This document shows, in pieces, positions 52,699 through 58,067 of a stretch of DNA of 58,067 bases. The translations under genes were made by a program, and so were the position numbers. The stretch is from positions 1 through 58,067 of the forward strand of contig DAOTVD010000126.1 in the NCBI GenBank assembly GCA_034437075.1. The letters are read 5' to 3'. The notes under the pieces were generated by a model. That model did no database searches, was not told the DNA's origin, and saw nothing but the letters and a program-made list of their open reading frames with translations. Position 1 is the stretch's first letter. The number at the start of each line of letters is the position of its first letter. This DNA comes from Anaerolineae bacterium. GTDB taxonomy: Bacteria; Chloroflexota; Anaerolineae; Aggregatilineales; J027.

Positions 52699-53061
52699 TT
52701 AATCGAGATACTCGCGGATGACACGCAGTAAATCGGGCGAGCTAATGGGCTTGGGTAGATAGTTATCGCAGCCTGCCGCCAGAAAACGCTCGCGGTCGCC
52801 GCGCATGGCGTTAGCCGTCAGCGCCACCACCGGGATGCCTTCGGTTTCCGGGTTGGCTTTGATGATGCGCGTGGCCTCAATGCCATCAATACCCGGAATA
52901 CTGATGTCCATCAAGATCAAGTCCGGTAGCTCTTTGGTGGCCATTTCGACCCCCGTTTCGCCATCATCGGCTTCTAGCACTTCGTAGCCTTTGGCCTTCA
53001 GAATTTTGCGCACCAAGCGTTTATTTTGATAATTATCTTCCACATAAAGTATCCGTTTCAT
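52699..53061 (-). CDS. Single-domain response regulator, DivK-like
   Basis: ILYVEDN, LILMDISIPGIDG, VALTANAMRGDRE and YLPKPI. Confidence 0.95.
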   Translation of the reverse strand: MKRILYVEDNYQNKRLVRKILKAKGYEVLEADDGETGVEMATKELPDLILMDISIPGIDGIEATRIIKANPETEGIPVVALTANAMRGDRERFLAAGCDNYLPKPISSPDLLRVIREYLD

Positions 53062-53068
53062 GGATTCC

Positions 53069-55153: not shown

Positions 55154-55181
55154 GTGGTTCTAAGAGTTTGCCTTTCGTGCG

Positions 55182-58067
55182 TTAACTTGCATCGGCTGTA
55201 TCAGTTTGAGCGACGGGCATTGTAAACCAGAAGGTCGAGCCCGCGCCGAGTTGGCTTTCGACATGAATGTCGCCACCGTGCATTTCCACCAATTGGCGGG
55301 TGATGGCCAGGCCTAGCCCGGTGCCCCCCACGCGGCGCGTAGACGACTGGTCAGCTTGGCGGAAACGCTCGAAGATGGTTTCCAGCTTATCCTCGCTGAT
55401 GCCCGTCCCGGTGTCGATGATTTCAAAACGGATCATCGCCTCGTCTGTGCGACGAACACGCACAGTGATCGTCCCTTCATCCGTGAACTTCGCCGCATTC
55501 GAGAGCAGATTATTGATGACCTGCTGCGCGCGCAAGCGGTCGGCTTGCATCATTGGCAGGTCGTCTTGCAGGTCGGTGAGTAGCTCAACCGGCTTGTCTT
55601 TGACCAAAATGCGCGAGGTATCCAGCAAGCTATTCAAGAAGCCTTCGATTTCGATCGGTTCGGTGACCAAATCTAACTGCCCGGCTTCGATCTTGGCTAA
55701 GTCCAGAATGTCATTGATCAGGCTGAGCAGCAGCTTACCAGAGCTATAGATCGCGCCGACATCTTCCTGAACTTCTTCGTTGATCGGCCCGTCGATGCCA
55801 TCCAAGATGACTTCGGCATAGCCGATGATGGAATTGAGCGGCGTGCGCAACTCATGCGACATACTGGCCAGGAATTCACTTTTCAGGCGGTCGAATTCGC
55901 GCAACTGCTCGGCGGTTTCTACCTGCTCGGCGTATAAGCGCGCAGTCTGCACCGCCACCGCGACCTGGTCGGCCAAGGTGCGCTTGATGCGCACGTCTTC
56001 GTCCGTGAAGCGGTTGAGTTGTTCGGACTGCACGTCCAGCACGCCAATCAGTTGGTCGGCCACGACCAACGGCACGGCGAGCTCCGCCCGGGTTTGCGGC
56101 AACAAGGGATTGGGCAAGAAGTCCGGGTTCGCTTGCACATCGTTCACGATCACACCCTGGCGTTCGCGCGCGGCGCGGGCCACCAAACTATGTTCGTGGG
56201 AGAGCGCAATCGCATGATGCGCGCTCACCATACGATCCCCCGCCGCGCCTGCGCCGGCTACCAGTTCGAGGCGCTCAGTTTCGTCATTCATCAGGTAAAT
56301 ATGCGCATGATAGAGATCAAACCGCTCTTTTGCCAGGTCCGACACACTCTTGAGCAAGCGCGAGACGTTCAATTCGGTGGCGGCGGTCGCGCTCACCTGG
56401 GCCACGGTTTGTAGCTCGGCGGCGCGTTTTTCCGTCTGGGTCAGCGCTTGCGCATTCTGGTAGGCCACCGCGATCTGATAGGCCAGTGTGCTTTGCACGC
56501 GCACATCTTGCTCGCTAAAGCGACCGCGCTCTTGGGCTTGCACGTCCAGCACGCCAAGCAGGCGGTCACCCACAATCAAGGGCACGGCCATTTCGGACTC
56601 CGTAGAGGGCAAAAGCGGGTTCGGCAAGAAGCCATCCGCCAGCGCAACATGGTTCTCGATGACGGCTGCGCGGTCGCGCGCGGCACGCGCCACGATACTA
56701 TCTTCACGGCTTAGCGCGATGCGGTGCCCATGTTCCACCATCTGGCGGCCTGCTTCGCCCGCACCCGCCGTCAGGGTCAGGTACTTTTCATCGTCGTCCA
56801 GCAGATAAATATGCGCGTGGTAGAGCCCGAAGTTCTCTTTTGTGAGTTCGGTCACCGACCAGAGCAAGTCTTCAATGTTGGTATTGGTGGCCGCCTGCGC
56901 CCCCACCTCAGACACAGTGGCCATTTCACGCGCCATGCGCTGGGTTTCGCGTTCTTGCGCGCGCCGTTCGGTGATGTCCTGAAAGCTGACCAGGCTCGCC
57001 ACGATGTTGCCTTCTTCGTCGCGCACGGGCGCGCCATCAATTTCCAGCAGAATACGGTTGCCATCCGGTCGTTCGACTTCCATATCATCAATGGACACCG
57101 TTTCACCATATAGGCCGCGCACCACGGGCGCTTCTTCGGTGGGGTAAATGTCGTTCGTGCCGGCTTTATACGCGGCGTAGATTTGCGTCAGGTCATCTTC
57201 AATCGCGCCTGGCGAGATGCCGCGCCCCAGCAATTCTTCGGCACGCGGATTGCTCAAGATGGGGGTGCCATCCGGAGCGCTGACCACGAAGATACCCGAC
57301 GGGATATTGTTCAGGACCGCTTGTAGCAAACGGCGCTGCGACTCGATTTCTTCGCGTTGGGCCTGTCGTTCGGTGATGTCTTGGAAGGCAATCACGGAGG
57401 CGATCACCTCGCCCTCTGCATTGCGGATGGGCGCGCCGGAGACTTCCAACAAGATGCGCTCGTCGCCCCGGTGCACTTCCATGTCGTCAATATAAGCTTC
57501 TTCGCCCATCAAACCGCGCACAATCGGCGTCTTCTCGGTGGGGTAGGGCTCGTCCGTGCCTGCTCGATAAGCCGCATAAACCTGTACAAGGTCTTCGCTA
57601 CGCGCATCCGGCGAGATACCGCGCCCCAGCAATTCCTCCGCACGAGAGTTCGACAGCAGCGGCGTGCCGTCTGGCGCTGCGACCACGAAGATACCCGACG
57701 GGATTTGATTCAGGATGGCTTCCAACAGACGGCGCTGGGACTCTAGTTCTTCTTCTTGCGCTTTACGCTCGCGGATGTCCGTCATGATCGTCCCGATATT
57801 CTGCGGGTTGCCATCGTCATCACGCACGATGAATAGCGTTTGGTCTACCGGAATGACCGTGCCATCGCGCGAAATGATCGTGTTTTCGGCGCGCCAGGTG
57901 TCGTTTTCTAAGATTTCGGGCACGCCTTTGTTCAGCACCAATTGGGCCCCGGCTTCGTCGTGGTAGTCCGGAATAAGCATTTGCTGCGCTTCGGCTAGGT
58001 CGGCAAAACCCATCATCTTGATACCACCCGGGTTCAGGTAGATGATCTCGCCTTCCATCGTCGTCAG
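55182..58067 (-). CDS. Multi-sensor histidine kinase (at least 3 PAS, 2 GAF, HisKA, HATPase); 5' end lies outside the window
   Basis: The frame stays open to the edge (LTT-MEGE, mid-PAS). [25 protein letters not shown] and GGTGLGL are present; no TM or receiver domain in the visible part. Confidence 0.96.
   Translation of the reverse strand: [961 protein letters not shown]

Follow-up and report, generated by a model that had tools for sequence, protein, structure and literature searches.

A threonine synthase-like enzyme carrying two C-terminal receivers: a conserved signalling-metabolic module of Anaerolineae

The locus and the fusion family

The genes considered here lie at one end of contig DAOTVD010000126.1 of an Anaerolineae bacterium, a stretch of 58,067 nucleotides hereafter called the window. 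A sensor histidine kinase, a fusion protein and a single-domain receiver are encoded head-to-tail on the minus strand, with intergenic gaps of 28 and 7 nt. The fusion protein joins a fold-type II pyridoxal phosphate (PLP) domain, resembling threonine synthase (ThrC), to two successive receivers (REC1 and REC2). This PALP-REC-REC architecture is real and conserved, and forms a so far uncharacterised signalling-metabolic module of Anaerolineae. An earlier reading of the letters and open reading frames (ORFs) of this DNA, called below the sequence-only reading, had proposed the three genes (52699-58067) as a candidate new signalling system. Our ORF calls agree with its genes and gaps; the conserved unit, however, extends beyond them to two PA14 genes, which close the following list:

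55182..58067, minus strand: sensor histidine kinase, C-terminal 962 codons, with three PAS, two GAF, HisKA and HATPase_c domains (Pfam) and no REC or HPt; its 5' end is cut by the contig end
53069..55153, minus strand: PALP-REC-REC fusion protein, 694 aa plus stop, with Pfam PALP at residues 56-369 (1.3e-67) and two Response_reg domains (6.4e-37)
53978..55153, minus strand: ThrC-like fold-type II PLP domain of the fusion protein, residues 1-392, with the codon of the Schiff-base Lys94 at 54872-54874 and including the tail 371-392
53534..53899, minus strand: REC1, residues 419-540, with phospho-acceptor D471 at 53741-53743, DD426/427, S501 and K522
53072..53452, minus strand: REC2, residues 568-694, with phospho-acceptor D621 at 53291-53293, DD576/577, T652 and K674
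52699..53061, minus strand: single-domain receiver, 120 aa (E8-D9, D52), with Pfam Response_reg only (1.5e-26)
51532..52590, minus strand: secreted PA14-domain protein, 352 aa (Pfam PA14, 1.5e-22), 108 nt downstream of the receiver gene
49834..51486, minus strand: second secreted protein, 550 aa, with PA14 and SH3_3 domains (Pfam), a conserved neighbour

The kinase ORF is called at 55182..58058(-). Its frame remains open up to the last base of the window, CTG ACG ACG preceding the ATG with no stop codon, and the kinase present here is therefore a C-terminal fragment. The PAS and GAF domains that the sequence-only reading attributed to it are present, but they belong to the end of a much larger protein, 3092 aa long in a close relative. 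In agreement with that reading, Pfam finds no DNA-binding, GGDEF or EAL domain in the kinase fragment, the fusion protein or the small receiver. These three proteins have no histidine phosphotransfer (HPt) domain either. The first PA14 gene (51532..52590) is probably the last of the transcription unit. A promoter and terminator scan finds no terminator-like site between it and the small receiver gene, and a hairpin followed by a T-run lies just past its stop codon, at 51514-51495(-). This hairpin is weak evidence, since the total counts of the scan are no higher than expected from shuffled sequence.

A search over 5.8 billion proteins yields at least 120 clusters combining PALP and Response_reg domains, with 55-100% identity to the window protein and 85-100% coverage (at least 97% in nearly all). 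The best 120 clusters are considered here, and all family counts given below are among those 120. They are drawn from NCBI, JGI, ENA and Logan assemblies, on contigs that in some cases measure 1.9-3.7 Mb, and the window's fusion protein is itself found twice, on contigs of two different sources. Sources that carry a name all belong to the Anaerolineae, being given as Anaerolineae bacteria, Aggregatilinea lenta, Aggregatilineales, Phototrophicales or 'Candidatus Thermofonsia'. A. lenta is a cultured Chloroflexota species of the class Anaerolineae, order Aggregatilineales. The homologs are named 'pyridoxal-phosphate dependent enzyme', 'PLP-dependent enzyme' or 'threonine synthase' in the databases. 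Annotated but uncharacterised homologs, allowed for by the sequence-only reading, thus exist in their hundreds, under names that are generic or probably over-specific. A peptide-pattern scan of 185,579 species genomes finds full-length relatives in Chloroflexota assemblies only (L006-L027), the remaining matches being receivers alone; such a scan reaches close relatives only, and outside the Chloroflexota its result should be taken as "not seen".

The functional residues of the fusion protein are strongly conserved. K94 is kept in 119 of the 120 family members, and the acidic pairs and phospho-acceptors of both receivers (D426/D427 and D471; D576/D577 and D621) are kept in all 120. In an alignment of 74 family sequences, S501, K522 and K674 show no variation and T652 reaches 90% conservation or more. 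No segment of the whole protein is better conserved than the clade-specific tail at residues 371-392 (HTFPAEKHILEDQYVLDL), with a mean pairwise identity of 82%. REC1, at 74%, is conserved above the PLP core (70%), while REC2 reaches 51% and the second linker 24%.

At the N-terminus, 98 of the 120 members carry a four-cysteine zinc ribbon (CxxC...CxxC) that the window protein has lost. Here and in an 86%-identical relative (P0002), a deletion of ~20 residues and two substitutions (T10, H13) abolish the ribbon, within residues 1-38 (window 55040-55153). A further member, P0006, also lacks the ribbon cysteines. The PLP domain described as complete by the sequence-only reading therefore has its whole catalytic core, but is without this N-terminal element of most of the family. 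In one metagenome-assembled genome (L025, 9905-12056), the fusion gene appears as two overlapping ORFs, one coding for a PLP part of 408 aa and the other for a PLP-REC-REC part of 337 aa, probably through a frameshift or a sequencing error.

Enzyme domain, receivers and gene neighbourhood

The best PDB sequence matches of the PLP domain are the threonine synthases 2ZSJ, 2D1F, 1UIM and 6CGQ (E-values of 1e-35 to 1e-38). With the AlphaFold model as query, Foldseek returns 2d1f, 2zsj and 1uim at a template modelling (TM) score of ~0.81, normalised to the target, then cysteate synthase and threonine deaminases. K94 sits in a GSFKDR sequence, and the SFKDR motif of the ThrC Schiff-base lysine is thus present. 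In the family alignment, the residues required for holding the PLP and forming the internal aldimine are all invariant: K94, S117-x-G119-N120, the S230-G231-G232-x-G234 phosphate loop and S368, the latter corresponding by position to T317 of Thermus thermophilus ThrC.

The domain differs from canonical ThrC in several respects. It falls short of the NCBIfam cut-offs for this enzyme, scoring 157.3 vs 167.1 for TIGR00260, 256 vs 303 for PRK08197 and 181 vs 421 for PRK05638. Four motifs common to six canonical ThrC sequences (five PDB structures and the ThrC of A. lenta) are replaced in the fusion family. FKDRG becomes FKDRQ in 119 of 120 members, STG[ND]TS becomes STGNK (101/120) or STGNA (19/120), NSxNxxR[LI]EGQKT becomes D.G....G[R/K]E..KT (YDPGIAGVAGREGLKT), and GNxGN becomes SGGIGP. 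The family also possesses an extra conserved tail (NCSGHTFPAEKHILEDQYVLDL). In the structure of T. thermophilus ThrC with a substrate analogue, the residues T88, N154, S155, R160 and N188 reportedly bind the substrate phosphate. If this list is right, the phosphate pocket of the fusion enzyme would be remodelled.

In three related genomes, a canonical thrC gene is located less than 10 kb from the fusion gene: A. lenta (L003, 20330-21613), L010 (21339-22556) and L009 (14119-15012). Each is found downstream, at a distance of 2-9 kb, and is encoded on the other strand. The A. lenta protein scores 259.7 bits on TIGR00260, and all four canonical motifs are found in these neighbours wherever the ORF is complete, the L009 copy ending before FKDRG. 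In the 58-kb window itself, no second ThrC-like gene is found. Because of the sub-threshold scores, the replaced motifs and the canonical thrC of the relatives, a housekeeping ThrC function is not favoured, and the automatic name 'threonine synthase' probably over-annotates the fusion proteins. Since all PLP-holding residues are invariant, we regard the fusion enzyme as a catalytically competent ThrC paralogue with a predicted non-canonical specificity. Its nearest unfused relatives (P0299, P0125) have no threonine-pathway gene, kinase or receiver in their context, and are uninformative on the substrate.

With the PLP domain alone as query, a profile-free HMMER search against 1.84 billion representatives sets apart a discrete clade with identities of at least 45%, after which identity drops to 39% or less. 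This clade contains PALP-REC-REC proteins (P0121, P0122), PALP-REC proteins (P0123, P0124, P0126, P0127) and unfused proteins of 377-435 aa. In a neighbour-joining tree, built without bootstrap and to be read for coarse grouping only, the receiver-fused proteins group together, with a few unfused proteins falling inside the group and others in basal positions. Such a topology fits a single fusion event, subsequent duplication of the receiver and occasional loss.

Seven further representatives, of 610-633 aa and 33-38% identity, form a separate clade in the same tree. The three scanned by Pfam (P0178, P0198, P0261) carry a C-terminal LeuA allosteric/dimerisation domain, and the remaining members (P0187, P0206, P0236, P0264) are assigned by length only. 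The named members of this clade belong to Parcubacteria/Jacksonbacteria. The LeuA-fused protein looks like an uncharacterised feedback-regulated enzyme. With the receiver fusions and the LeuA clade together, the ThrC-like group would therefore have gained a C-terminal regulatory module at least twice, at the same position.

The PALP proteins with a single receiver constitute a paralogous family of ~548 aa. A search with an unfused member gives more than 100 clusters of them, in Anaerolineae and Aggregatilineales. They share 50% identity with the window protein over the PLP domain and REC1 and keep the clade motifs, but have STGNV in 109 of 109 members. They score 170-183 on TIGR00260, just above the cut-off of 167, hence their PGAP name of threonine synthase. 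Both paralogues occur in at least one genome, as OHK0023_03840 and OHK0023_04830 under one assembly prefix, the single-receiver copy lying on the 644,553-bp contig BAAHIR010000001.1. The proteins P0024 and P0387, each recorded on a contig of 3,680,599 bp, suggest a second such genome.

The receivers of the operon appear competent. Against a Pfam Response_reg gathering cut-off of 30.2 bits, the two stretches of the fusion protein score 126.6 bits and the small protein 93.2 bits. The sequence-only reading had credited both fused receivers with an acidic pair, a phospho-Asp, a Ser/Thr and a Lys, and this is confirmed, with D471 and D621 located in classical β3 contexts (DLVISDLTMP and GLIVLDLMLP, respectively). 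After the receiver Lys comes G or A, where P is usual. REC1 and REC2 share 37% identity, and the single receiver of the ~548-aa paralogue is collinear with REC1. REC2 therefore looks like the later copy and is probably a tandem duplicate of REC1.

The small receiver had been called DivK-like. It is indeed a single-domain protein, but its top NCBIfam matches are the receivers of hybrid kinases, namely BarA, HrmK, TorS and ArcB. Its α1 residues (Q-N..L..K-I) are akin to those of REC1 (Q-D..L..R-L) and REC2 (K/R-D..L..R-M/L/I), and those of an unrelated receiver of the window (5057..5419) differ (P-V..M..N-A). According to specificity studies based on Spo0F, these positions reportedly dominate kinase-receiver recognition. 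The resemblance fits one kinase serving REC1, REC2 and the small receiver, for which it is weak evidence; a competition of the three receivers for one kinase, as put forward by the sequence-only reading, is likewise only weakly suggested. The unrelated receiver gene (5057-5419, minus strand) stands directly upstream of a gene for an α2-macroglobulin-like protein, at the other end of the contig.

ORF calling covered the window plus 26 loci in which a relative of the fusion gene occurs (L001-L004, L006-L027), and the window's own domains served as queries. A common gene order emerges: a GAF/HAMP co-sensor, a giant GAF/PAS kinase, the PLP-REC-REC protein, one or two small receivers and a PA14 protein. 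It is complete in ten loci (L001-L003, L006-L010, L012, L025), and is matched as far as the DNA extends in the window and in L011, L013, L021 and L027, and likewise in L091. Upstream DNA is visible in 20 distinct double-receiver loci, and in 13 of them the kinase gene directly precedes the fusion gene. The conservation of neighbourhood called for by the sequence-only reading is thus found for most loci, but not for the seven others (L004, L015-L020), which form a 'Thermofonsia-like' subclade at ~55% identity where neither a kinase nor a small receiver adjoins the fusion gene. Linkage in an operon is therefore lineage-specific. In four of these seven loci, the fusion gene is followed by a convergent receiver gene, which in L004, and also in L005, codes for a REC-GerE (NarL-type) regulator adjoining a HisKA_3 kinase.

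The kinase of the 86%-identical relative (L091, 678-9956) is a 3092-aa protein harbouring an extracytoplasmic sensor (HK_sensor_dom_bact), a HAMP domain and many GAF/PAS domains. Complete kinases of other relatives measure 1092-1778 aa. The dimerisation and histidine phosphotransfer (DHp) helix is near-invariant over ten operon loci, with one substitution in one locus. In relatives, a dCache/PilJ-HAMP-GAF protein lacking a kinase domain invariably precedes the kinase; in L091 it is of the dCache_1-HAMP-GAF type. A. lenta and L010 have an extra gene between this co-sensor and the kinase, coding in A. lenta for a periplasmic binding protein.

Downstream of the fusion gene, the orthologue of the small receiver (RILYVEDNFQNKRLVRKIL...GCDDYLPKPIS) is highly conserved and kept in all operon-type loci. 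Six loci (L006, L007, L009, L013, L021, L027) possess a second small receiver, inserted between the fusion gene and the conserved small receiver. It is of a different type in the three that were aligned (L006, 4941-5315; L007, 4169-4543; L009, 4229-4600). A PA14 gene comes after the small receiver or receivers wherever the sequence extends, and PA14/SH3_3 proteins are found at the same position as in the window in L001 and L003. No HPt domain is detected among the 43 window ORFs scanned or the called genes of the related loci, and such a gene may lie elsewhere in the genome.

Single-receiver variants at 44-46% identity (L022, L024, L026) also have a kinase directly upstream, which in L022 and L026 is a hybrid with one and two receivers of its own, respectively. 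In five of six loci, the single-receiver gene adjoins a kinase gene, and a gene for an EamA-family transporter comes next, directly or after the kinase (L086, 8001-12197; L087, 8001-12529; L088, 8001-10816; L024, 4012-6709; L026, 10389-14885). The EamA family includes exporters of amino acids and metabolites such as RhtA (threonine/homoserine) and EamA. A divergent class I/II aminotransferase gene is located upstream of the single-receiver gene in L086 and L087. No EamA gene occurs in any double-receiver locus examined.

Proposed control of the enzyme and alternatives

We propose, at about an even chance, that the fusion protein is an enzymatic response regulator, in which a ThrC-like PLP enzyme would be switched by phosphorylation of its two C-terminal receivers. 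Probably with the help of the dCache/PilJ-HAMP-GAF protein that precedes it in relatives, the kinase would phosphorylate REC1, REC2 and the small receiver. Phosphorylation would alter the packing or dimerisation of the receivers, and the change may be relayed, via the highly conserved tail and the linker (371-418), to the presumably dimeric PLP domain. As a result, the production of an amino-acid-type product would go up or down. The small receiver may act as a competing phosphate sink, or as a branch towards another target.

The proposal is supported by the intact PLP core, the two intact receivers, the co-conserved adjacent kinase and small receiver, and the lack of any other output domain. 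The idea that phosphorylation gates the enzyme was already present in the sequence-only reading, and now has indirect support from the invariant catalytic Lys and PLP motifs and from two lines of comparison. The LeuA domain of the neighbouring branch occupies the same C-terminal position as the receivers, which argues for an enzyme gated by phosphorylation. The single-receiver paralogue stands beside a kinase and an EamA exporter, a context that fits a regulated enzyme with an exported product better than a sensor. Furthermore, control by appended domains is established for other fold-type II PLP enzymes, such as IlvA, cystathionine β-synthase and plant threonine synthase.

Several points weigh against this proposal. 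The AlphaFold2 monomer model, computed from the 74-sequence family alignment, has confident individual domains, but its predicted TM-score (pTM) is 0.58 and the predicted local distance difference test (pLDDT) is below 50 in both linkers. As it gives no usable interdomain geometry, the coupling between receivers and active site is an assumption. The ~55%-identity subclade (L004, L015-L020) holds the fusion protein with neither kinase nor small receiver next to it, and the zinc ribbon of most relatives is missing from the window protein. A ligand sensor, too, would be expected to conserve its PLP site, and the likeness of the small receiver to those of hybrid kinases could point to a phosphorelay through an HPt protein. 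Finally, the activity of all family members, and its gating, are predictions from sequence.

The regulated product might also be threonine, the fusion protein being a genuine second threonine synthase that converts O-phosphohomoserine into threonine with a flux under two-component control. Threonine synthases are the best matches in sequence and structure, the single-receiver paralogue passes TIGR00260, if barely, and the presence of RhtA in the EamA family is in keeping with the context of that paralogue. We nevertheless consider this unlikely, the window protein itself being under the TIGR00260 and PRK08197 cut-offs, with the four canonical motifs replaced across its family and a canonical thrC at hand in related genomes. 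A more radical departure, which was the other option of the sequence-only reading, is that the PLP domain senses a ligand (an amino acid or the PLP status), and that the protein is a phosphate sink or hub tuning the small receiver, which would be the real output. This seems decidedly unlikely to us. It would account for an operon devoid of classical output domains, for three receivers per kinase (four in six relatives) and for their resemblance at α1, as well as for the high conservation of the small receiver, and catalytically idle PLP folds do serve as sensors, for example in the MocR/GabR regulators. However, the whole catalytic set is invariant in the family, the LeuA branch indicates that C-terminal appendages regulate the enzyme and not the reverse, and the paralogue is linked to an exporter. 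The fusion protein moreover stays intact in the subclade devoid of the kinase and small receiver, an observation left unexplained if the protein were no more than a sink for that kinase.

There is also a slim chance that the receivers of the fusion protein are the end of a multi-step phosphorelay, leading from the kinase to the small receiver, to an unlinked HPt protein and then to REC1/REC2. The small receiver and the HisKA region of the kinase resemble the hybrid kinases BarA, TorS and ArcB, which feed HPt relays, and the kinases adjacent to the single-receiver relatives L022 and L026 are hybrids. On the other hand, neither the 43 window ORFs nor the called genes of the related loci include an HPt, and the α1 residues common to REC1, REC2 and the small receiver suggest the same donor for all three. 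As for an assembly chimera or a decaying oddity of a single genome, the missing zinc ribbon of the window protein and the split gene of L025 would be its signs, and its probability is negligible. The sequence-only reading had named it as a refutation to be checked, and the same architecture recurs in at least 120 clusters from four assembly sources, cultured A. lenta included, on contigs of up to 3.7 Mb. The 86%-identical relative has the same deletion in the same gene order, and the functional residues are invariant. An assembly chimera is accordingly rejected.

The kinase-receiver-enzyme scheme and the control of enzymes by appended modules are both known; we rate as new the combination of a ThrC-like PLP output with two competent C-terminal receivers. 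The sequence-only reading knew of no characterised pathway with this architecture, and none has emerged. The literature searches found no publication describing two C-terminal receivers that have a ThrC-like PLP enzyme for output, and the PDB sequence and Foldseek searches found no solved structure of such an enzyme fused to receivers. With ThrC (EC 4.2.3.1; 1UIM/1V7C, 2D1F, 2ZSJ, 6CGQ), the fusion protein shares the fold type II, the SFKDR lysine, the S-T-G-N loop and a C-terminal S/T contacting the pyridine nitrogen. It is only ~30% identical to it, with the four motifs replaced, the extra conserved tail and the two receivers.

Among enzymatic response regulators, the CheB methylesterase, the PleD diguanylate cyclase, the HD-GYP protein RpfG and the PP2C-type regulators also have a receiver controlling a fused enzyme and a cognate kinase gene nearby. 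In the fusion protein, by contrast, the output is a PLP-dependent amino-acid enzyme, and the receivers are C-terminal to it. PleD shares the tandem receivers, but the fusion protein has no GGDEF domain, and its second receiver keeps a full phospho-site where that of PleD is a degenerate adaptor. In IlvA (ACT-like domain), cystathionine β-synthase (CBS domain) and plant ThrC (S-adenosylmethionine-binding N-terminus), a regulatory module on a fold-type II core controls flux, and in the first two it is C-terminal, as in the fusion protein. These modules bind metabolites, whereas the module of the fusion protein would respond to phosphorylation by a kinase that senses the environment.

Closer relatives carry other appendages. 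The LeuA_dimer fusions are, like the fusion protein, members of a broad PRK08197-like ThrC group and have their appendage at the same C-terminal position, but they fall in their separate clade at 33-38% identity, with a ligand-binding allosteric domain instead of receivers. The single-receiver paralogue has the clade-specific motifs, the same genomes and an adjacent kinase in common with the fusion protein; it differs by its one receiver, its STGNV motif and an EamA-family transporter in place of the receiver and PA14 genes.

The PLP-dependent autoinducer synthases CqsA and LqsA, of Vibrio and Legionella, reportedly make a small signalling molecule and are encoded beside a sensor kinase (CqsS, LqsS) and a response regulator (PMC3376566). 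These synthases are of fold type I and unfused to receivers, and their likeness to the fusion protein would be one of system logic only. By analogy, it is conceivable, though quite improbable, that the receiver-fused enzymes are signal synthases, the kinase gating the synthesis of a non-proteinogenic amino-acid-type cue, intercellular or at the cell surface, in filamentous Anaerolineae. Such a cue could be released by the adjacent EamA-family exporter of the single-receiver paralogue. The whole would make a feedback-wired autoinducer circuit with a CqsA/CqsS-like logic, in which the synthase itself would be the response regulator.

The normal targets of two-component systems are transcription, motility and second messengers. 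If the proposed gating is correct, an amino-acid-type PLP enzyme under direct phosphorylation control would represent an output of a new class, through which environmental sensing reaches metabolism without a transcriptional step. The fusion family is large and, as far as seen, confined to the Anaerolineae, filamentous bacteria that abound in sludge, sediments and mats but have been little studied; since A. lenta is a cultured host, the hypothesis is testable. The unfused, one-receiver and two-receiver proteins form a natural series on one scaffold, with the LeuA domain in a separate neighbouring branch, and could show how regulatory modules are swapped. The over-annotation as threonine synthase also matters for the metabolic reconstruction of Chloroflexota genomes assembled from metagenomes.

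Other contents of the window

Next to the operon, the block at 43747-49837 codes for two kinases, a Ser/Thr protein kinase (824 aa) and a GAF-PAS histidine kinase, together with a GNAT acetyltransferase, a DtxR/FeoA-type metal repressor and a hypothetical protein. The block shows synteny with L001, a 72% relative, and the signalling-rich neighbourhood is therefore conserved beyond the operon itself.

Further away, an aromatic amino-acid cluster (30131-40453) comprises anthranilate synthase I and II, EPSP synthase, chorismate synthase, a type II dehydroquinase, a DAHP synthase with a ferredoxin-like domain and a fused shikimate kinase-dehydroquinate synthase (37770-39353). A Roadblock/LC7 (MglB-like) gene is found beside a convergent gene for a zinc-ribbon and FHA protein (27624-28636). 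A complete dcw cluster extends over 5568-25459, with ftsZ, ftsA, an ftsQ-like gene, murB, ftsW, mraY, a penicillin-binding protein (PBP) transpeptidase and three further Mur ligase genes, one of which is set apart at 23855-25459. Two CvpA (Colicin_V) paralogues are inserted in it at 11691-12782. The α2-macroglobulin-like gene (3-5009, minus strand) codes for a giant protein of more than 1669 aa (Big_5, MG2, bMG3, A2M) and runs off the other end of the contig.

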